From Nitrospirota bacterium (lineage in GTDB: Bacteria > Nitrospirota > Thermodesulfovibrionia > Thermodesulfovibrionales > UBA9159): 64,000 nucleotides of DNA. Made by a program: the position numbers and the translations under genes. The DNA is taken from NCBI GenBank assembly GCA_963699545.1, contig CAVOUE010000007.1, forward strand, positions 32,001 through 96,000, read 5' to 3'. The notes under the pieces were generated by a model. The model was given only the letters and a program-made list of their open reading frames with translations. It searched no databases and was not told the DNA's origin. This document shows positions 29,859 to 45,021 of the stretch, one piece after another; the first letter of the stretch is position 1, and every line of letters starts with the position of its first letter.

Positions 29859-30537
29859 AAGGAACCTCGGCTACTCCTTTAAGGACAGGACGCTCCTCAT
29901 CGAGGCACTGACCCACCGGTCATACCACCACGAGAACCCGGAAAGGGTGTCTTCCTACAATGAGCGGCTCGAGTTCATAGGCGACTCGGTCCTCGGGCTC
30001 GTCGTGGTCGAATATCTCTTCCGCTACAGCAAGGATTTTTCAGAATCGGAGATGTCGGAGATCAAATCCTTTATCGTGAGGGGTTCCCTGCTTTCCGAGA
30101 TAGCAGCAGGCGCATCCCTCGGCACGCATGTGCGGTTGGGGAGAGGAGAGGAAGAGACAGGAGGAAGGGCCAAGGGATCCATTCTCGCCAATGCCATGGA
30201 AGCGGTTTTTGGCGCTGTTTATCTCGATGGGGGGTATGAGGCTGCAAGGAATTTTATCCTCCACCTTCTGAGGGAAAGGATCATAGCGGTGATATCCTCC
30301 GGCCAGTACCACAACTTCAAGACGGAGCTCCAGGAGGAAAGCCAGATGCGTTTCGGGGTGCTGCCAGAGTACCGGATCGTAAGCCAGGAAGGGGAGGAAC
30401 ATCGCAAGACTTTCACTGCGGATGTTTCTATCGCGGGAAAAACGTTCGGGCGCGGCGCAGGAAAGAACAAGAAGGAAGCCCAGACCGCAGCTGCGAAAGA
30501 GGCGATGGAGAGATTAAAAAAGGACCCGGCGCCGTAG
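29820..30537 (+). CDS. rnc: Ribonuclease III (start restored by removing one T near 29827)
   Basis: [20 protein letters not shown]; dsRBD KTELQE...[12 protein letters not shown]. Confidence 0.94.
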
Positions 30538-31988: not shown

Positions 31989-34301
31989 ATGGTAAAAGCA
32001 AGAATCCTTGTGGTCGAAGATGAAAAGCTGCTTTCCGAGGAGATACGGCACATGCTGGAAAGACTCGGATATGAAATTGCCGGCATCGCTTCCTCCGGAG
32101 AGGACGCGATCGGCAGGGCGGCGGCAACACACCCAGATCTGGCGCTGATGGATATCGTGCTTAAAGGGAGTGTGGACGGGGTGAAGGCCGCTGAACATAT
32201 CAGCGCGCGTCTCGACATCCCCGTGGTGTATCTTTCTGCACATGCGGACGAAACGACGTTGCACCGGCTGAAGATAACAGAGCCGTACGGCTACATTCTC
32301 AAGCCGTTTGACGAAAGAGAACTGCATACCAATATCGAGATAGCCCTCTACAGACACCGGACGGAAAGGACGTTAAGGGAGAGCGGGGAAATACTACGGG
32401 TATCTCTCGAAAGGGCCGAAACGGAAACAGCCAGGGCAGAGGCGATCATTGCAGCCATTGGAGACGGAATGAGCATTCAGGATACCGACTACAAGATCTT
32501 ATATCAAAATCAGATCCATAAAGCTTTGGTCGGGGATCACGTTGGCGAGTACTGCTACAAAGCATACGACTTTAGAGACGATGTTTGTGAGGGCTGTCCT
32601 GTGGCACTGTCTTTTAAGGACGGCAAGACCCACACCGTGGAAAAGAGCAACCCCACAAGGAAATTGCTCGTTGAGATCACTGCGTCACCCGTAAAAGATG
32701 CATCCGGCAAGATCATAGCAGGAATCGAGATTGCGAGGGACATTACCCGGCGCAAGCAGTCGGAGGAGGCGCTGCGGGAAAGTGAAGAACGCTACCGCAA
32801 CCTCTTTGAGAACGCCCATGACATGATACAGAGCGTGGACGCAGAAGGAAAGTTCATTTTCGTGAACAGCTCATGGTTGAGGATCCTGGGGTATACTGCG
32901 GAGGACCTTCAGAAGATGACCCTGTTTGGTATTCTCCACCGGGACTGCAAAGATCACTGCATGGCCGTCTTCGGGAAGGTACTGAGCGGTGAAGCCGTGG
33001 ACAATATTGAGGGAACGTTCGTTGCAAAAGACGGGCGGCCGGTCCATGTTGAAGGGAATGTGAGCGTGCGCTCAGCCGGCGGAAAAGTGATCGCCACCCA
33101 GGGGATCTTCCGCGACGTAACCGAGCGCAAGAAAGCAGAAGCGGAAAGGGAGAAGTTGGAAGTGCAACTCCTCCATGCCCAGAAGATGGAAGCCATCGGG
33201 ACGCTGACGGGCGGCATCGCCCATGAATTCAACAATATCATGACCGTGATCATGGGCTATGGTGAGTTCCTGCAGGAGGGACTGGACAAGGATAACCCGT
33301 TATCCCATTATGTCGACTTGATGCAGGCTTCTGCTATTCGGGCAACCCAGCTGACGCGGAGTTTGCTGGCATACAGCAGGAAACAGATCATCAATCCCCG
33401 ACCGGTGAATTTGGACGATACGGTGCAGAACGTGGGAAGACTTCTCTCGAAGCTGATCGGTGAGAACATAGAGCTCAGGATTACCTCTGCGGACGATGGG
33501 ATAAGTATAATGGCGGATTCCGGCCAGATAGAGCAAGTGCTGATCAACCTTGCCACAAACGCAAGGGACGCCATGCCCGGAGGAGGGTTGCTGACCATTC
33601 GTACCGCCCCCATCACGCTGGACCATGAATTTGTGATAAGGCACGGGTACGGGAAACCCGGAAGGTATGCCGCGATATCGGTCAGCGATAGCGGCATTGG
33701 CATGGATGACAAGACAAGGGAAAGGATATTTGAGCCGTTCTTTACCACCAAGGAATCGGGCAAGGGCACGGGACTCGGGCTTGCCATGGTCTACGGGATA
33801 GTCAAACAGCACGACGGGTATATCAACGTATACAGTGAACCGGGGAAAGGCACAACCTTCAAAATATTCCTGCCTTTGACCAAACCTGGGGAAGGGTCGA
33901 AAACGGCTGTCCTCCCCCCTGCCAGGCGGGGCACGGAAACGGTCCTCGTTGCAGAAGATGATGCGGCGGTGAGAAGACTCACAAGGGATGTCCTCGAGAA
34001 AGCAGGGTACAAGGTCATCGTGGCGGAAGACGGTGAAGATGCGCTCCATAAGTTCCTTGAGAGCAGGGACGACATCAGTCTGCTCGTTCTTGACGTAATG
34101 ATGCCCAAGAAGACCGGCCAGGAGGCTTTTCAGGAGATCAGAAAGGTGAAACCGGACGTGAAGGCGCTGTTCATGAGCGGTTATACGACCGATCTCCTGC
34201 AAAGGGACTGGACCCTGGAAGAGGGAATGACCTTTTTGCCGAAACCCGTCTCACCCAATGAGCTTGCGAGAAAGGTGAGGGACCTTCTGGACAACGGATA
34301 A
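31989..34301 (+). CDS. Cytoplasmic hybrid histidine kinase REC-PAS-PAS-HisKA-HATPase-REC
   Basis: N-terminal [13 protein letters not shown]-box; NARDAMP; FFTTK; GTGLGL; C-terminal REC. Confidence 0.93.
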
Positions 34302-37774: not shown

Positions 37775-39725
37775 ATGAAGATCAGCACGAGACTACGATT
37801 CAATTCCTGGATCTCCCTGAGCGTGATTCTTCTCACGGTTCTTTCCCTCGGCTGGTCTTTGCGGGAAGCGTCCAAAGCAGACAAGAATCAGAGCCTCGTT
37901 ACGGAGCTCCGGAAAACCGCCCTTGAGAGAACAGTATTAAGGGACGAATATCTGCTGAATCGCGAAGAGCGTGCGAGGAGCCAGTGGCATTCGAAGTCTG
38001 AAAAGTTCAGAGGCCTATTGGGACTGGCCCGGGAGAGGTTCACCAAAACGTCGGACAGGGCGCTGTGTGAACAGATACAAAGAGACTTTGAGAGAACTGT
38101 CTCCATATTCTCTAAGATAGTGGAAAATCGTGAAAGGGAGAAAACCGCAGGAAAGGGCAGTCTCTTTTCCCCTGAGGGTGAGAAAAGGCTGCTCAGTCAG
38201 ATAATACTGAATGCATATGACTTGCTCGACAGCATCGGCAGACTGCATGAATCGGCTCAGAGGACATCTGCAACGGCACACAAAAGGATAGTTCTTTTCC
38301 TTATCACTTTTATCGCTCTTGTCGTCGTTACTACCGTTGGAAATTCCGCAATCGTCAACGGAATATTGGCGAGACGCATCTCGAGACTCCGCGAAGGAAC
38401 CGTAATCATCGGGGCCGGCAATCTGGACCATAGGATTGATATCAAGGGCAGTGACGAACTCTCGGACTTAGCCCGTGAGACAAATGAAATGGCAGCCAAA
38501 TTGATGGAATCGTATACGTCGGTGGCGAACTTGCAGAGGGAAATCACCGAACGCAAACGGGCTGATGCTGCGCTTTGCGAAAGCGAGGGACGCTATCGCT
38601 CATTGTTCGAGAATATGATCGAGGGTTATGCTTATTGTCAGATGCTCTTTGACGGCGATCGTCCGCTGGACTTCATCTATCTCGATGTCAACGGCGCATT
38701 CGAGAAACTGACGGGACTGAGAAATGTCGTCGGGAAGAAAGTCACGGAAGTGATCCCGGGCATACGCGAAGCTGACCCAGAGTTGTTCGAGATCTACGGC
38801 AGAGTGGCCTTGACAGGCGAGCCTGAGAGGTTCGAGACATACGTGGAAGCCTTAAACAACTGGTTTCATATCTCGGTATATAGCCCGAAAAAAGAACACT
38901 TCGTCGCGGTATTTGACGTCGTCACCGACCGCAAGCGGGCAGAGAAGGAGATCAGGAAACTCAACGAGGAACTGGAGCAGCGCGTCGTTGACCGCACGGC
39001 CCAACTGGGAGACTGCCAACAAGGAGATGGAGGCGTTCAGCTATTCGGTCTCCCATGACCTCCGGGCGCCGCTTCGTCATTTGACAGGATTTGTGGAATT
39101 GCTGAACAACAGAGCACCAGAGTCTCTGGATGAGAAGGCCAAACACTATCTGACAGTGATCTCGGATTCAGCACGGCAGATGGGCAGGCTAGTGGATGAC
39201 CTTCTCTCCTTTTCGAAGATGGGCCGCTCTGAAATGACGAGAAAGCATGTTAACCTTGACCATCTTGTGAAAGAAGTGTTAGGAGAACTTCAAACTGATA
39301 TGAAAGGACGGAACATCTTCTGGAAGATCGATCCCCTTCCGGAAGTGAACGGCGATCCTTCCATGCTCCGTCTCGTGTTCATCAACCTCGTCAGTAACGC
39401 GATCAAATTCACGCGCAAGCAGCCGCAGGCGCGAATTGAGATCGGGTGCATCCCGGACAATCCGGGAGAGAAGGTGTTTTTTGTGAAAGACAACGGAGTG
39501 GGCTTTGATATGCGTTACGTGGACAAGCTTTTCGGCCTGTTCCAGCGCCTCCACAGGACAGAGGAGTTTGAGGGAACAGGGGTGGGCCTTGCCAACGTCC
39601 AGCGCATCATCCACCGCCACGGCGGCAGGACCTGGGCCGAAAGTTCTTCAGAAGGAGGAGCAATCTTCTATTTTTCATTGCCGAAACAAATAGCAGTCAG
39701 CGATCAGCAATCAGCGGTTAGCTAA
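37775..39725 (+). CDS. Membrane sensor kinase TM-periplasmic-TM-HAMP-PAS-HisKA-HATPase (frameshift near 39010)
   Basis: Two TM segments; HAMP; FSYSVSHDLRAPLR; NAIKF; DNGVGF; FQRLH; GVGLA. Confidence 0.9.
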
Positions 39726-39790
39726 AGGATTATGAAAAGACATCAGCGATCAGCAATCAGCGGTCAGCTAAAGGCTGATAGCTAGAAGCG
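39691..39790 (+). repeat. Heptamer array TCAGCnn containing a 32-bp direct repeat
   Basis: tcagcgatcagcaatcagcggt(t/c)agctaaagg at 39697-39728 and 39743-39774. Confidence 0.9.
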
Positions 39791-39798
39791 AGGTTAAG

Positions 39799-40158
39799 TT
39801 GAAAGATTTGAGAGGATTGAAGGTCTGGGAAAAAGCTCATAACCTTGTTTTGTCAATCTATCATGCCACCAGCAAATTTCCCAAGGATGAGCTGTACGGT
39901 TTAACAAGCCAGATTAGGCGAGCCGGTATTTCAATCCCTGCCAATATAGCTGAGGGATGTTGCAGAAGCGGAGATGTGGAGTTTGCACGTTTTCTTCAGA
40001 TTGCAGCAGGGTCAGCAAGTGAACTCGAATACCATCTGTTGCTTGCTCATGATCTCAGGTTTCTCAATAGTGCAGACTTTGAACAGCTGAGAAAGGAATT
40101 GGTCGACGTGAAGCGTATGCTTTCGTCTTTCATTAAGAAGCTGAGAGCTGAACGCTGA
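39799..40158 (+). CDS. Four helix bundle protein (23S rRNA IVP / TIGR02436-like; Avd-related fold)
   Basis: LKVWEKAH; FPKDELYGLTSQIRRAGISIPANIAEG; FLQIAAGSASELEY. Confidence 0.92.
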   Translation: MKDLRGLKVWEKAHNLVLSIYHATSKFPKDELYGLTSQIRRAGISIPANIAEGCCRSGDVEFARFLQIAAGSASELEYHLLLAHDLRFLNSADFEQLRKELVDVKRMLSSFIKKLRAER

Positions 40159-40170
40159 CTGCTGAAAGCT
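40139..40170 (+). repeat. Inverse heptamer array nGCTGAn overlapping the four-helix gene stop
   Basis: AGCTGAG AGCTGAA CGCTGAC TGCTGAA AGCT. Confidence 0.85.
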
Positions 40171-40190: not shown

Positions 40191-40646
40191 ATGATAACTG
40201 ACGTAAGGAGGATTTTACTTGTAGAGGACAATCCCAATGATGTGGAACTCACCATCGAGGCGCTGGGCGAGCATAATATCGCAAACATGGTCGATGTTGT
40301 CCGTGACGGAGAAGAGGCACTGGATTATCTCTATCGCAGGGGACAGTTCAAATCCCGGCCGAACGGTAATCCGGCTGTGGTACTCCTCGATCTCAAGCTT
40401 CCAAAGGTGAATGGCCATGAGGTGCTGAGAACGATACGATCAGATGAACGACTGAAGTTGCTTCCCGTCGTGGTCCTTACGTCTTCACGCGAGGAACAGG
40501 ACCTGACAGAAAGCTACAAGCTCGGTGCGAACGCCTATGTGGTCAAACCGGTGAATTTCCAGCAATTCATGGAGGCAGTGAAGAAGTTAGGTATATTCTG
40601 GGCGATCATCAATGAACCGCCGCCCATTAGCCGGGGAAAGGAGTAG
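40191..40646 (+). CDS. Single-domain response regulator (Rcp1-like)
   Basis: LLVEDNPND; LLDLKLPK; VVLTSSREEQD; GANAYVVKP. Confidence 0.93.
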   Translation: MITDVRRILLVEDNPNDVELTIEALGEHNIANMVDVVRDGEEALDYLYRRGQFKSRPNGNPAVVLLDLKLPKVNGHEVLRTIRSDERLKLLPVVVLTSSREEQDLTESYKLGANAYVVKPVNFQQFMEAVKKLGIFWAIINEPPPISRGKE

Positions 40647-40649
40647 GAT

Positions 40650-40731
40650 TGAGCCGTCGGCGATGAGCTCCCAGCTTGAGATTGTGGGCTGACCACCGAT
40701 AGCTGATTGCTGACCGCTGATAGCCGATTGC
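40650..40731 (+). repeat. ORF-less heptamer inverted-repeat element
   Basis: TGAGCCG TCGGCGA TGAGCTC CCAGCTT, loop, then GGCTGAC CACCGAT AGCTGAT TGCTGAC CGCTGAT AGCCGAT. Confidence 0.8.
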
Positions 40732-40738
40732 GAAAAAG

Positions 40739-42767
40739 ATGAAACAGACATTGCGCATACTTCATCTGGAAGACAATAAGCACGATGCCGAGCTTATTCA
40801 TGAAAAGCTTGCGGCGGAAGCCATCGAATGCGACGTGACACTTGTAGACACCCGCGAAGGTTTTATTTCTGCCGTTGAGCAGGGCGGATTTGACATAATC
40901 CTTGCAGACTACAAACTTCCTTCTTTTGACGGCATGTCAGCCCTGAAGCTTGCGAATGAAAAGTGTCCTGAAGTACCTTTTATCTTTATATCGGGAACTA
41001 TAGGCGAAGACACGGCCGTCGAAGCCCTCAAGAGCGGAGCAACCGATTATATCATCAAAGACAGACTCTCACGGCTTGCATCGGCGGTGAATAGGGCGTT
41101 ACAGGAGGCTGAATCCGGAAGAGAGCGCAAGCGGGCAGAGGGCGAACTGGTGCGTCTTTATCAGCAGGTGAAGGAAGAGGCGGAGGTCTCCGGGTCGCTC
41201 CTGCAGATGGTCGAGGCGTTGAACAGGAGCCTTGATGAAAGGGAACTCATAAAGACTGTCACTCAACTTGCTCCACACTACCTGAAATTCGACAGGATTG
41301 CGATATTCCTCCTCGATGAGGACGTCAAGAGTTTTATGTTTTCCGGCGGATACGGTTTCAGCCCTGTGGAAGAGGGGATATTGCTTTCGCGGAACTTCAA
41401 GTCAGGTGATTTCCCTGCAATGGACAAGGCGATCGCAGGGGAGACGGTAATCGTAGAAAATGGGCGGGAAACCGATCTCATAAGCAAAGAGCTGGTTGAC
41501 ACATTCGGCATAATGGGCGCCGTGATCGTTCCCATCATTGCCAGGGAGAAAGTGATCGGAGGGATATATGCTGATTATAAGACCCTGAGGCCCATCGAAA
41601 AGAGGGAAGTCTCATTCCTGAAAGGCCTTGCAGACGGGATTGCCATCGCCCTTCAGAACAGCAGGCTTTACAGGGACTCCGTCAAAAAACTGATGGAGTT
41701 GCAGGGGAAGATCGGGACGATCAAGGCCATGTCACAGCTGGATAAAGAGATACTTTCCTCTATTGACAGGAACACCGTTCTGAGAACGGCTGCGGCGCTG
41801 ATAAACAAGGTAGTCCCCTGCGACCGAGTGGGCATCGTCCTTAGGGAAGGGGACAGGTGTGCGGTTGTTTCGGAATGGGGCGCCGGAGATTTCCGCGACA
41901 AGACGTATACGATTAAGGGCAGTCATCTTGAGGCCTTTGACAGAAACCGGGCGGCCGTTTACATTGACGACGTCACCCGGGACGACTGTCCCTATCATAA
42001 AAGCCAGAGGGAGATCGGTATCGTGTCTTCCCTTCTCATCCCCCTCGTGACGAAGGAAGGGGTCGTGGGCTTTCTGGATATCGGTTTGACCCATCCCGGC
42101 AGGCTTACTCCCGAACATCTTATGACCGCAGAGAACATCGCGTCACAGATATCGGTGGCATTGGAAAATTCCAGGCTTTATGACGAACTGCAGCAGCTTC
42201 TCGTCAGCACTATTAAGTCCCTGGCCTCCGCCATTGATGCGAAATCCCCCTGGACACAGGGACATTCCGAGAGGGTAACACAGTACGCGCTGCAGATCGG
42301 CGGCGAAATGGGATTGAAGGAGGAAGAACTGGAACGGCTGAAGCTTTCAGGTCTCCTCCACGACGTGGGCAAGATCGGTACCTATGACATACTCCTTGAC
42401 AAGCCCTCCAAACTCACGGACGAGGAGTTCGCGCTGGTGAAGAAGCATCCGGGGAAGGGAGCGGAGGATCCTGGCGCCTATACGGCAATTAAGCGATGTC
42501 ATTCCCGGTGTCCGTTACCATCACGAGCGATATGACGGCAAGGGATATCCCGACGGCCTGAAGGGAGAGAACATACCCTTTTTTGCCCGTATCCTCTGTG
42601 TAGCGGATTCCTTCGATTCCATGACCGCGGACAGGCCTTACCGGCCGTCACCGGGGAAGGAGTATGCGATCTCAGAATTCAGGCGGTGCAGCGGTTCACA
42701 GTTCGACCCTCATGTGGTCGATGCGTTCCTGAAGGTCCTCAGCAGGCCGGAGGAGGGATCACCATAA
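40739..42767 (+). CDS. REC-GAF-GAF-HD-GYP cyclic dinucleotide phosphodiesterase (frameshift near 42466)
   Basis: GHSERV; LLHDVGKIG; the shifted frame gives HHERYDGKGYPDGL, ADSFDSMT, GSQFDP and a TAA at 42765-42767. Confidence 0.9.
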
Positions 42768-42788: not shown

Positions 42789-44960
42789 TCAGCTCCACAT
42801 CATGGCCTCAAAGTCGGGTGTCGGTACGGCAACAGTGATATAGCCCCTCCACGGACATCGCTCGAACTGCTCCCCTTCCTTCCTGACCGTGATGAAGAGA
42901 TGCAGCTCGTCCCGCTCCTTTGCCCTGATATCCCGAAAAGGGATCGCGCACTCAAGGATCTCGTCAACCGCGACATCCGTGATCTCCCTGATCTCGGACC
43001 AGGTACCGTCGCTTCCGTCCAGGAGATTTGCCGTAGTCCCTTTTCTCACGGGGACATCGAGCCTGCAAGGGAAAGGCCTGCTGATCTCCACGGAAAGCAC
43101 CGAGCCTTCAGGAAAAGCATCGAAGGTACCCACAGGGTCGACACGGACAAAAAGCGTCTCCTTGTTAAAGCCGTAGTAGATCCTTGATATGAGGCCCTCG
43201 GTCATGTGCATGCTCCCGCCCGATTTTCCCACATCCAAGTGCGCACCCTGATACCACTCAAAATAGCTCGTCATAATACCGTCGATCTTGGGATGAATAA
43301 AGCCCCTGATCTCGACCGAAGGCGCGACAGCCCTGTCCTCTCTGAGGACGGGCACATAGAGGTGCTGGGGGACCTCCTGCCCGATCTCTTTATACACCTT
43401 CATGAGATTCAGCCGGAAGAGCTCGTCGAATTCCCCTGCAAGTTCGGTGGAGTGTTCGTCTCCGTACCACCAGTTCCAGTCGCTCCCCTCCGCAACGTAG
43501 AGGGACTTCCACGCAGAATGCAGTTCCTGTTCGGGATGTGCTCTCTGAAACGCCTCAAGGGCATCCCTCGTCTCCGTCAGATAGTCCCATGAGGTATTGT
43601 CCTCTTCGTGGCCGATCCAGACATTGAAGTTCGCATAGATCCAGGAACCTGCTGCCAGGTGTTCCAGCTTCCTCCTCCCTCCCTGCATGTGGAGAAAGTC
43701 GGATATGGTGGTGGTCTTCAGGCGTTCATTTCTTGAAAGACCTTCGTACAGATACCGGAAGAAGTCATTGCCGTCGTTCCCGTAATACTCCCACGCGTTC
43801 TCACCATCAAGGATGATCGGAACGACGTGGGGCTCATTCTGCGGCAGCGAACCCTGGATCTGAAGCAGCCGGCTGATCAGATCGTTGGCAGCGCTCTTCG
43901 GGTCCCACCCGGAGTAGACAAATCCAAGCAGGTCGGAGATCTTGTGGTCCCTGAAAACCATAGAGACACCGGAATATTCATAGGCAGAGTAAAGAGCGGC
44001 CGGGTCAAGCACATTCCCCGATGAGCCCCTCAGGCCTTCCCTGAGCGAACGGGCGAGAATGTCCTCATCAGTGGCGATCCACTGTATTCCCGCTTCGTGA
44101 AAGGCCCTCACAACGTCTTCGCTCACCGACCCCTCAGACGGCCACATGCCGAGGGGTTTGCTCCCGAACAGCGTTTCGTAGTGTTCAATCGCCATCCGGA
44201 TCTGCGTTCGCGCATCCTCGGGATGGGCGAACCGTCTCTTCGGAAGACGCACCTCGGGGACCGGGTCCCTGGCCGTGTTCGTGTCGCAGAGCAGAGGGAG
44301 GATGGGATGATAGAACGGCGTGGTGGATATCTCTATCTGCCCCTTCTGCGAGAGCTCCTTGTATTTAGGGATGATGGCCCGCAGCAGGGAAAACTGCCTT
44401 TCGATCAGGAGTTTCTTTTCGTCCTCCGTAAACCCCTTGCCCTTTGCGGCAAGCTGGCCGAGAAAGGGGTCCTGTGTCCTGAAGACAGGGTCTATCCATG
44501 CAAGGTTGAACAGCACCTGGAGGTCAAGGAAATCGCCGTCGGTAAAGTACCGGACGGCGCGGCGGAGGTCGGTTCCCGAGAACCGCATTCCCCTCTTCAG
44601 CAGCAGCTCATAGTACCGTGGAAACGGCCTCACCATGGTATCCCAGTTGGCGAGGAAGAATTTCTCGAGGATGAACACCCGCTCGTCGTCCGTCAGTTCG
44701 GACGCCTTTTTGAGAGTGACCTGGAGGAACGAGTCCTGCGCGTCATTATCCGTATAGTCGGTGATCTGCTCCAGCAGGGACGGTACAAGGTTAAAGGTCT
44801 GCTTTATATCGGGAAACTCCTCGAGAACCGCTGCCATATCGAGATAATCCTTTGTCCCGTGAAGTCTCACCCAGGGCAAACGGTAGATACCGGTGAAAGG
44901 GTCTTTGTAATACGGCTGGTGCATGTGCCAGAGGAAGGCAACATGCAGCTGATGGCTCAT
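42789..44960 (-). CDS. Glycoside hydrolase family 57 (amylopullulanase-like)
   Basis: WHMHQP; HPILPLL; GMWPSEG; ILDGENAWE; AEGSDWNWW. Confidence 0.92.
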   Translation of the reverse strand: MSHQLHVAFLWHMHQPYYKDPFTGIYRLPWVRLHGTKDYLDMAAVLEEFPDIKQTFNLVPSLLEQITDYTDNDAQDSFLQVTLKKASELTDDERVFILEKFFLANWDTMVRPFPRYYELLLKRGMRFSGTDLRRAVRYFTDGDFLDLQVLFNLAWIDPVFRTQDPFLGQLAAKGKGFTEDEKKLLIERQFSLLRAIIPKYKELSQKGQIEISTTPFYHPILPLLCDTNTARDPVPEVRLPKRRFAHPEDARTQIRMAIEHYETLFGSKPLGMWPSEGSVSEDVVRAFHEAGIQWIATDEDILARSLREGLRGSSGNVLDPAALYSAYEYSGVSMVFRDHKISDLLGFVYSGWDPKSAANDLISRLLQIQGSLPQNEPHVVPIILDGENAWEYYGNDGNDFFRYLYEGLSRNERLKTTTISDFLHMQGGRRKLEHLAAGSWIYANFNVWIGHEEDNTSWDYLTETRDALEAFQRAHPEQELHSAWKSLYVAEGSDWNWWYGDEHSTELAGEFDELFRLNLMKVYKEIGQEVPQHLYVPVLREDRAVAPSVEIRGFIHPKIDGIMTSYFEWYQGAHLDVGKSGGSMHMTEGLISRIYYGFNKETLFVRVDPVGTFDAFPEGSVLSVEISRPFPCRLDVPVRKGTTANLLDGSDGTWSEIREITDVAVDEILECAIPFRDIRAKERDELHLFITVRKEGEQFERCPWRGYITVAVPTPDFEAMMWS

Positions 44961-45021
44961 AGCTGACAGCTCACAGAGAAATGAACGCCTGAACCATGGA
45001 CCATGGAGGATGAGCCGGTCT
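44947..45021 (-). repeat. Heptamer arrays at the GH57 start / ftsB junction
   Basis: Plus strand AGCTGAT GGCTCAT AGCTGAC AGCTCAC, then CCTGAAC CATGGAC CATGGAG GATGAGC. Confidence 0.6.

Follow-up and report, generated by a model that had tools for sequence, protein, structure and literature searches.

What is a gene of the 23S ribosomal RNA (rRNA) intervening-sequence protein (IVP) family, familiar from rRNA intervening sequences (IVSs) since the early 1990s, doing between a sensor histidine kinase and its receiver? The question is raised by a 64-kb stretch of DNA from a Nitrospirota bacterium (GenBank assembly GCA_963699545.1, contig CAVOUE010000007.1, forward-strand positions 32,001 to 96,000), here called the window, in which a short open reading frame (ORF) for a four-helix-bundle protein is bracketed by inverted arrays of heptanucleotide units. 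The genome that holds the window, G000, is a 3.04-Mb assembly of 13 contigs and is 87% complete. Coordinates are positions in the window, on the + strand, unless a contig (C) or the minus strand is named; G and L numbers denote genomes and loci, respectively.

We consider it rather probable that the window holds one member of a widespread group of selfish cassettes of the IVS type, ~470 bp in length, which spread horizontally and whose proteins recognise their own class-specific inverted arrays. The IVP family, rRNA IVSs and dispersed heptamer repeats, to which the short tandemly repeated repetitive (STRR) sequences of cyanobacteria also belong, are known; what may be new, judging from sequence comparison, is the link between IVP genes and the dispersed heptamer repeats.

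An IVP gene enclosed by inverted heptamer arrays

The IVP gene (39799..40158) encodes 119 residues from a TTG start codon, with a putative Shine-Dalgarno-like GCGAGG (39788..39793) located 5 nt upstream. Its product matches the PF05635 profile (23S rRNA IVP) with an E value of 1.8e-39 (134.7 bits against a cut-off of 33.8, profile positions 3-105 of 106) and is the single PF05635 match of G000. Two arrays precede the gene. The first (39697..39728) is made of the units TCAGCGA, TCAGCAA, TCAGCGG and TTAGCTA followed by AAGG and is the predicted 5′ arm of a stem closing the ORF; the second (39743..39774) is one base off the first over 32 nt and is predicted to form a local hairpin with positions 39775-39786. 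Compared over 37 nt (39697-39733 and 39743-39779), the two copies are 92% identical. Downstream, an inverse array (40139..40170; AGCTGAG, AGCTGAA, CGCTGAC, TGCTGAA, then AGCT) provides the predicted 3′ arm of the closing stem, and its four NGCTGAN units (40139-40166) overlap the IVP stop codon. Because TGA recurs in this array at a period of 7, it places a stop in every frame. The last ~10 codons of the kinase (IAVSDQQSAVS) and its stop codon come from the first upstream array, and the C-terminal end of the IVP ORF, KLRAER, is encoded with its stop by the downstream array.

Tandem Repeats Finder calls period-7 arrays at 39692-39715, 39742-39768 and 40138-40170, and the arms 39692-39715 and 40140-40163 are 88% complementary over 24 nt. 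The arm stem closes the whole ORF in both the minimum free energy (MFE) and the centroid RNA fold of a 496-nt stretch, with a folding z-score of -2.55 and none of 100 shuffles folding equally well. An earlier, sequence-only reading of the window had described two 32-bp upstream units with one mismatch, an inverse (nGCTGAn)x4 array over the stop codon, coding ends that had absorbed the repeats, inner arrays able to pair and loop out the ORF, and a gene of the IVP-like four-helix-bundle type. All of these descriptions hold, the positions given being exact or off by no more than a few bases, and the repeat finders agree on the upstream units.

A further inverse array (40688..40731; GCTGACC, ACCGATA, GCTGATT, GCTGACC, GCTGATA, GCCGATT) lies between the receiver and the next gene. 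The repeat finder gives 95% complementarity over 19-20 nt between this array and both upstream copies, and a tandem-repeat call assigns it a period of 21 with 2.1 copies. Two arrays are thus present on each side: the inner pair encloses the IVP gene, and the outer pair encloses the IVP gene together with the receiver. The sequence-only reading had passed over this array and also a TCAGC-type array on the minus strand (~44944-44975), which lies over the start codon of a 723-aa minus-strand ORF (42789-44960) and encodes its MSHQLH N-terminus. No promoter-like or terminator-like sites beyond chance were found within the cassette of the window.

Two 151-nt contigs from an independent public run show no difference from the IVP and receiver genes that they match; the other contigs obtained from the two DNA runs examined are fragments of other organisms. 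One of the latter, from run X2, seemingly joined 39771 to 40146 with 31 other letters between and was considered as an empty allele; this candidate was rejected, since its 25-nt side is only 85% alike, and we take it to be a gene-less hairpin of another organism.

Inverted arrays recur around IVP genes

PF05635 has matches in 26 of the 41 related genomes, many of which carry several copies. Flanks were retrieved for 70 of the matched places; the 56 that were full-length with enough flank were scored by lag-match at periods 6-10 and by ungapped inverted repeat, the threshold being the 95th percentile for the flanks of 600 control ORFs of G000. Scores above this threshold were obtained for 37 of the 56 upstream flanks, 32 of the 56 downstream flanks and 44 of the 56 inverted repeats. 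An array (period 6-10) and an inverted repeat occur jointly at 40 of the 56 IVP loci and at none of the 600 control ORFs, so that the enrichment around family members that had been foreseen from the window is borne out. The predicted flank-to-flank duplex energy has a median of -55.5 kcal/mol, versus -34.3 kcal/mol with swapped partners (n=111, Wilcoxon p 2.7e-17); a control with reversed downstream flanks also gives a median of -34.3 kcal/mol.

The geometry of the cassette recurs as well. Among 71 scored upstream arrays the period is 7 nt in 57, 8 nt in 9, 9 nt in 3 and 6 nt in 2, the median gap between array and start codon is 21 nt, and 32 of 68 scored downstream arrays overlap the IVP stop codon. 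The unit itself varies among loci (for example GGTGAAGN, AGTGAAY, GTCCACR, GGGATTA and CAAACGGYT), and the downstream arm remains its reverse complement. A tblastn search found 32 records of named plasmids, mostly cyanobacterial, of which five were read; Nostoc punctiforme pNPUN02 and Trichormus variabilis plasmid C carry GTCAGGA/GTCAGAA arrays upstream and the inverse downstream.

At least nine PF05635 matches above the cut-off start less than 700 nt from the first base of their contig (for example G038:C83:338, G035:C15:106, G016:C8:273, G040:C4:322, G002:C90:234, G025:C7:238 and G005:C295:168), and the 16S contig of G019 ends within a TCAGC array. The arrays seem to break short-read assemblies.

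The array class follows the protein clade

The best 80 loci found with the window protein as query were taken from contigs representing one genome per species; 67 are displayed, 13 partial or interrupted ones being left out. TCAGCNN/NNGCTGA arrays flank proteins that are ~55-69% identical to that of the window and come from Acidobacteriota, Verrucomicrobiota, Nitrospirota, Binatota, Thermodesulfobacteriota and others, and more distant IVPs carry TCAGTTN, TTAGCTN or unrelated units. In a FastTree phylogeny of 115 IVP proteins, the classes TCAGC (29), TCAGT (8) and TTAGC (5) all fall within one clade of 45 rows. The class labels require 10 changes on this tree, versus a mean of 38 after shuffling and with 0 of 200 shuffles as low, a test limited by the short alignment and by kinship. 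The TCAGC-class loci are distributed over Acidobacteriota (17), Verrucomicrobiota (6), Nitrospirota (2), Binatota (1) and Thermodesulfobacteriota (1), in addition to G000 and one genome of its order. In 28 loci TCAGC precedes the gene and GCTGA follows it; the opposite arrangement is found in 0 of 115. Lenient counting gives 163 upstream and 186 downstream units for the 29 TCAGC-class loci, or ~5-6 units per arm. The flanks and the tree together show that array class and protein clade are inherited jointly across phyla and that the orientation of the arrays is fixed.

A genome-wide family of arrays in G000

The sequence-only reading had treated the arrays as private termini of the IVP gene. 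This view does not stand, as the arrays belong to a genome-wide family found in rRNA genes, intergenic hairpins and coding loops. G000 holds 14 TCAGC arrays of at least 3 units at period 7, versus a median of 0 for 60 permuted 5-mers (next highest, 4), and TCAGC occurs 0-3 times at other periods. Gene-less hairpins share a common plan, in which TCAGCnn units are followed by a short loop and nnGCTGA units. One lies in a 16S rRNA gene (G000:C6:200109-200194), which Rfam delimits at 1602 nt for a model of 1533 positions; another lies in a 23S rRNA gene (G000:C6:202357-202430), within a 94-nt insert located by Rfam at model position ~283. The second rrn operon of G000 also carries both the 16S and the 23S hairpins, and intergenic hairpins are found at C12:135048-135102 and C3:202306-202358. 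Solo arrays are in frame within class II ribonucleotide reductase, chorismate synthase, a FabF-like ketoacyl synthase and TPR proteins. Arrays inside ORFs of G000 always have the open TCAGC sense; the GCTGA sense has TGA in all frames.

The same sites are occupied by different classes in different genomes. The ribonucleotide reductase loop holds (TCAGCGG)x4 in G000, a CCGAACT-type run in G002, a GTCACNN run in G013, another short insert in G010, and little or nothing in G001 and G007. The FabF loop holds (GCTGATC)x3 in G000, (GCTGATT)x4 in G002 and GTGACGA units in G001. Helix 6 of 16S rRNA bears TCAGC arrays in G000 and G019, a long hairpin of another unit in G023 and short helices in G040 and G033, and the 23S hairpin site of G040 is occupied by a hairpin of an AGGTA-type unit. 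Such differences would reflect either a small number of insertion-tolerant places or the overwriting of existing arrays.

Repeats of other kinds were noted along the way. A second 23S insertion of more than 130 nt lies at model position 583 (G000:C6:202001-205300, L168), a region that we take to be the helix-25 IVS site, and is non-heptameric. Three paralogous units of ~1.5 kb encoding TPR proteins (G000:C2:39001-52000, L161; C2:10001-14000, L162) have frames that cross AATCGTG arrays and the GCTGANN arrays beside them; G000 yielded no IVP gene flanked by AATCGTG units. Within the window, another heptamer run (CGAGCAA, CGAGCGA, CGAGTAA, CAAGTGA) occupies 2810-2843, and a related GTGACGA unit is the one present in the FabF loop of the congener G001.

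Matching arrays in other carrier genomes

Motif-based calls of the cognate class proved too generous (G023, for example, was called TCAGC through AGGCTGA units), and the classes reported here are those read from flanks. Across the 41 relatives, matches to TCAGCNN x3 are distributed bimodally: G019 has 56, G010 33, G040 31, G002 22, G000 itself 21 and G018 13, and 21 genomes have none. With the pattern reversed as a control, counts stay near 0 in all genomes but G030 and G002. Matches to GGTGAANN x3 number 148 in G005, 51 in G023 and 19 in G026, the three genomes with that unit at IVP flanks; elsewhere there are 37 in G018, a congener of one carrier, at most 5 in five relatives and 0 in 32 of the 41. 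AGTGAAN x3 gives 31, 27, 18 and 7 matches in the class carriers G035, G030, G040 and G002, respectively, and at most 7 in other genomes. Many matches form inverted pairs 10-40 nt apart, and 20 sampled sites of G023 are mostly solo arrays at gene junctions, with some hairpins and some arrays within ORFs.

Ten genomes of other phyla show the same correspondence. For TCAGT x3 the contrast is clean, with 41, 21, 81, 9 and 69 matches in those with a TCAGT-class IVP versus 2, 0, 0, 1 and 0 in those with a TCAGC-class IVP; for TCAGC x3 the contrast is graded, with 170, 127, 20, 23 and 64 matches in the TCAGC-class genomes versus 15, 9, 33, 27 and 4 in the TCAGT-class genomes. Reversed-pattern controls give 0-4. 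The pattern counts show that genomes with a given IVP class carry many matching arrays elsewhere.

The GGTGAA/TTCACC arrays of G023 (L170, L173, L184-L186, L189) often abut AGGCTTA / TAAGCCT units ('cctaaagcctatttacc'), which suggests composite elements made of two array classes.

Insertion at operon junctions

The cassette of the window separates genes that are usually close neighbours. The sensor histidine kinase (37775..39725) is read in two overlapping frames, one (37775-39058) with HAMP and PAS domains and the other (38913-39725) with HisKA and HATPase_c (Pfam E values of 1.6e-24 for HATPase_c, 3e-14 for HisKA, 2.2e-8 for HAMP and 1.4e-5 for PAS_8). Its usual downstream partner, a single-domain response regulator (Response_reg, E 1.6e-20), is encoded at 40191..40646 and is followed by a receiver-GAF-HD(-GYP-like) protein (40739..42767), which ORF calling and Pfam also divide into two frames (40739-42535 and 42621-42767). 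The broken frames of the kinase and of the receiver-GAF-HD gene may be genuine frameshifts or may stem from indels in the assembly.

When 19 genomes of the same family were searched at the DNA level, homologous kinase-receiver pairs were found, among them four that lack the cassette (L152, L153, L155 and L157). In these four the position of the kinase stop ranges from 13 nt within the receiver gene to 45 nt upstream of it and no other gene intervenes, which supports the view that kinase and receiver are normally adjacent. In L002, from another family of the same order, an IVP gene with a unit of GTGATGA and variants occupies the equivalent junction, the kinase being 57% and the receiver 53% identical to those of the window. 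An orthologous empty allele was not found within the genus (G001 gives no match and G002 only a 70-nt array match), and an exact search of metagenome contigs with 30 nt of the kinase end gave 0 matches. The empty kinase-receiver alleles looked for on the strength of the sequence-only reading exist as homologous pairs and were not recovered as orthologues in the genus. The repeat listing contains no direct repeat flanking the arms, target-site duplication having been judged by eye against homologous, non-orthologous empty junctions. Comparison with these loci supports the interpretation of the cassette as an insertion into a normally tight kinase|receiver junction.

Many lineages have IVP cassettes at operon junctions, as had been supposed from the window alone. 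With neighbours taken from crude ORF calling as the nearest long ORF, the neighbour is on the strand of the IVP gene at 96 of 112 loci upstream, at 100 of 116 downstream and on both sides at 83 of 107. Pfam covered 82 of the 112 upstream and 32 of the 116 downstream neighbours. The assignments bring out gene pairs that are classically transcribed together. By these assignments a kinase|receiver junction holds an IVP cassette in five loci, the window included, HisA|HisF in two and ArsD|ArsA in two. Other junctions are Cas4|Cas1, NuoC|NuoD, SdhA|SdhB, ABC ATPase|FtsX, two Proton_antipo_M subunits, ArgC|ArgD-like, LysA|Asd and 3-hydroxyacyl-CoA dehydrogenase|acyl-CoA dehydrogenase. The sites vary by lineage, with DprA|TopA in Terriglobia, ABC ATPase|FtsX permease in Verrucomicrobiia and kinase|receiver in the window; since insertion sites differ between lineages, gene and arrays travel together.

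A clade of longer IVPs (137-152 aa) adjoins Cas6, Cas4|Cas1 or RAMP genes (L016, L030, L017, L032, L036 and L213, the last on a Pseudanabaena galeata plasmid), and L001 and L019 lie between CRISPR-like direct repeats. Genes of cas systems make up ~5 of the 82 upstream neighbours, which seems above what operon-junction insertion alone would lead one to expect. Passages of Zhang and Ye 2013 (PMC3936711) and of PMC10910872 place IVP genes in cas loci. The reported association might be re-read as insertion at operon junctions; a possibly cas-specific clade of IVPs argues against such a re-reading.

The IVP protein

Sequence searches of the PDB identify XCC0516 (2gsc, E 1.4e-21; five chains in the entry) as the closest solved relative of the window protein, followed by 2rld (E 8.9e-7). 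The calculated isoelectric point (pI) of the protein is 9.2. The conserved polar motif quoted for the family in a passage of Zhang and Ye 2013 (PMC3936711), GxxRxxxSxxxNxxE, is largely recovered: R41, S45, N49 and E52 are invariant across 16 aligned members, likewise Q38, G53, S72 and E75, and the first position of the motif is Q instead of G in 16 of 16. A match to PF22296 (bAvd) is weak (E 7.3e-4, 20.5 bits, below the cut-off of 40).

The PF05635 gene is the sole ORF of the cassette, which contains no transposase, and the 87%-complete G000 gives no match to the reverse transcriptase profile PF00078; both absences agree with the sequence-only reading. A retroelement mechanism was set aside because of the missing PF00078 match. 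No close relatives of the window IVP were found among viral contigs.

Comparison with known elements

The nearest precedents are the rRNA IVSs of Leptospira and Coxiella, which share with the window the PF05635 protein family and terminal inverted repeats that form a predicted stem around the ORF. In Coxiella, according to passages of PMC4990558, tandem GACAGAT heptamers stand before the S23p ORF in a unit number that varies between strains, and a 28-bp terminal stem holds the heptamers and is cut in vitro by RNase III; heptamers placed directly 5′ of the ORF and inside a stem are thus common to both systems. The old idea that IVSs are mobile is cited in the same article. The heptamer family of the window, moreover, also builds ORF-less inserts in 16S and 23S rRNA. 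However, its gene-bearing copy lies in a protein-coding operon, outside rRNA, and its arms are multi-unit arrays of a class-specific unit that is dispersed genome-wide.

Dispersed repeats form the second precedent. The main text of Aklujkar 2009 (PMC2700814) describes heptanucleotide and octanucleotide multicopy elements in Geobacter metallireducens, and that of MacGregor 2015 (PMC4679880) describes TAACTGA repeats in Beggiatoaceae, Cyanobacteria and Bacteroidetes, for which it states that "no mechanism is evident". As presented in these main texts, such repeats resemble the arrays studied here in having 2-6+ tandem units of 7-8 nt at tens to hundreds of sites, mostly intergenic or overlapping gene ends, with stops in all frames in one orientation and the other within ORFs, and in their patchy phyletic spread. 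Read on the opposite strand, TAACTGA becomes TCAGTTA, the unit found on the flanks of IVP genes in L093, L108, L116 and L120 (Phycisphaerae and Chloroflexia loci). In contrast to the present arrays, the published main texts name no associated protein and leave the binding factors unidentified, and the link to IVP is drawn here from other organisms. The terms 'Four helix', 'S23' and 'intervening sequence' in connection with dispersed repeats are absent from the main texts of PMC2700814, PMC4679880 and PMC4853749, bar one unrelated 'intervening'. Full-text searches, which covered main texts, found no literature linking IVP genes to dispersed heptamer repeats.

Three kinds of mobile element invite comparison. 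REP-associated tyrosine transposases (RAYTs) are HUH/Y1 transposases whose genes, often single-copy, are flanked by inverted cognate repeats. As in the RAYT/REPIN system, inverted cognate repeats flank the IVP gene, the repeat class co-varies with the clade and gene-less copies, often hairpins, are dispersed; unlike a RAYT, the window protein is a four-helix bundle of ~120 aa without an HUH/Y1 transposase, its repeats are tandem 7-nt arrays rather than a single palindrome, and copies lie inside rRNA and coding loops. The Avd protein of diversity-generating retroelements (DGRs) belongs to a related four-helix-bundle fold family, to which the weak PF22296 match points, but this match is below cut-off, the genome has no PF00078 match and there is no template/variable repeat pair. 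Insertion sequences (ISs) and miniature inverted-repeat transposable elements (MITEs) offer the same combination of an autonomous, gene-bearing copy with shorter, gene-less inverted-repeat derivatives, but the cassette has no transposase, no target-site duplication was seen, and its termini are arrays of variable unit number.

Mechanism and alternative explanations

Under the reading that we favour, an IVP oligomer would recognise its own repeat units, and the gene-bearing cassette would be the autonomous partner of the gene-less arrays, as RAYTs are for REPINs or ISs for MITEs, spreading by a DNA-level route that needs neither transposase nor reverse transcriptase. In the operon transcript, by analogy with rRNA IVSs, the two arms would pair as a long interrupted stem to be cut by RNase III, which would release the IVP message and uncouple the translation of kinase and receiver; the transcript of the cassette is probably processed like an rRNA IVS. 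The arrays themselves may make insertion tolerable, one orientation having stops in all three frames, so that the upstream gene and the IVP gene end cleanly, and the other being open, so that an array survives within coding loops. An RNase III gene is present in the window at 29884-30270, ~9.5 kb upstream of the cassette, a proximity that is probably coincidental. More doubtfully, we suggest that IVP proteins could be the missing trans-acting partners of dispersed heptamer/octamer families: gene and inverted arrays would constitute a new autonomous element, without transposase or reverse transcriptase, that seeds class-specific arrays and hairpins into rRNA helix tips (thereby making IVSs), operon junctions and protein surface loops, and replaces classes at permissive sites.

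Several observations weigh against the favoured reading. The joint array and inverted-repeat test is failed by 16 of the 56 IVP loci, and its controls come from G000 alone. The Calothrix and Nostoc PCC 7120 plasmid loci have a downstream array only, and the arrays of 15 and 10 units at the cas6-IVP-cas4 locus of Pseudanabaena galeata are direct rather than inverted. TCAGT-class genomes still hold 4-33 TCAGC matches; G010 (95% complete) has 33 TCAGC matches, and G018 has 13 TCAGC and 37 GGTGAA matches, each with no PF05635 match; G002 has 22 TCAGC matches, and 0 of its 6 examined IVP loci are TCAGC-class. Unless assemblies miss the gene, such array-rich genomes indicate that arrays can persist or arise without a cognate IVP. 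Co-inheritance on the tree does not prove that the protein recognises the arrays, related genomes are non-independent samples, and the IVP contains no recognisable nuclease or recombinase domain. In the part of a preprint on rRNA insertions in the candidate phyla radiation (CPR) that concerns it, the domain is labelled functionally uncharacterised. Finally, stem mismatches in 94 distinct stems (2636 positions) comprise 76 that are G-U in the sense RNA versus 88 that are G-U in the antisense only, being A-C in the sense (p 0.39). Given this absence of a G-U excess, the pairing shows no sign of selection on the sense RNA and the complementarity cannot be assigned to RNA function, although the test is weak since most mismatches fall at the two variable positions.

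The last result bears most directly on the proposal of the sequence-only reading, an mRNA-level intervening element. In its pure form, the arrays would matter as an RNA stem only, RNase III would excise the IVP message, the protein would bind the stem and play no part at the level of DNA, and the dispersed arrays would be unrelated by-products. The predicted closing stem, which survives in both the MFE and the centroid fold, speaks for it, as do the in vitro cleavage by RNase III of heptamer-bearing rRNA IVSs and the presence of an RNase III gene in G000, the position of the array family at rRNA helix tips, where selection acts on RNA structure alone, and the co-orientation of most cassettes with their neighbours. 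Yet besides the missing G-U over A-C bias, it leaves without explanation the solo, partnerless arrays in ORFs and at gene junctions, the class-specific copy numbers across genomes, and the 5-nt core that stays fixed while the proteins diverge to ~55% identity, and we regard it as rather unlikely. Of the earlier proposal, then, the predicted stem stands, and the restriction to mRNA is not borne out by the mismatches or by the genome-wide dispersal. Because the arrays form a genome-wide family that co-varies with the IVP clade, a DNA-level system of autonomous and non-autonomous members is indicated at least as much as an mRNA element resembling an intron.

A host-serving role is distinctly improbable in our estimate. 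Here the IVP would be a trans-acting regulator for which the arrays, in DNA or mRNA, serve as operators or attenuators, much as TRAP binds spaced triplets; arrays close to genes would make up a regulatory network, and the flanks of the IVP gene itself would autoregulate. Unidentified global regulators or translational control are in fact proposed for dispersed heptamer/octamer repeats in the main texts on Geobacter metallireducens (PMC2700814) and TAACTGA (PMC4679880); the arrays often lie just 5′ of start codons or at gene junctions, the protein is basic, and each arm holds ~5-6 units. Against this stand the arrays within helices of rRNA and in loops on the surface of ribonucleotide reductase and FabF, the different classes at the same sites in different genomes, a cassette that crosses phyla and enters unrelated operons, and the array-rich genomes without IVP, all of which fit a selfish repeat better than a conserved regulon. 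Very improbable is a passenger role, in which replication slippage would generate arrays at permissive sites and IVP genes would merely accumulate or survive between them, with no specific relation of protein to repeat. Unit number does vary at one site (3 in the FabF loop of G000 versus 4 in G002; 2 or 3 units in Coxiella strains, as given in passages of PMC4990558) and arrays do occur without IVP genes, but slippage accounts neither for the dominance of a single 5-nt core (14 arrays versus a median of 0) nor for a core that tracks the IVP clade across phyla in fixed orientation with clean reciprocal counts. An assembly artefact, whether chimeric join or collapsed repeat, can be dismissed almost entirely: the assembly is in 13 contigs, two genes near the cassette have broken frames and IVP loci elsewhere are often at contig ends, but over 100 independent assemblies show the same arrangement, among them finished plasmids from named cyanobacteria, and the two 151-nt contigs of the independent run are identical to the IVP and receiver genes.

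Implications

In practical terms, the arrays seem to break assemblies; they also give annotated proteins low-complexity tails and loops, and lengthen 16S and 23S rRNA genes. Should IVP genes and heptamer repeats indeed belong together, rRNA intervening sequences, operon-junction cassettes and heptamer repeats would be one phenomenon, and a large and widespread protein family would gain a testable function, the recognition of its own short tandem repeats.

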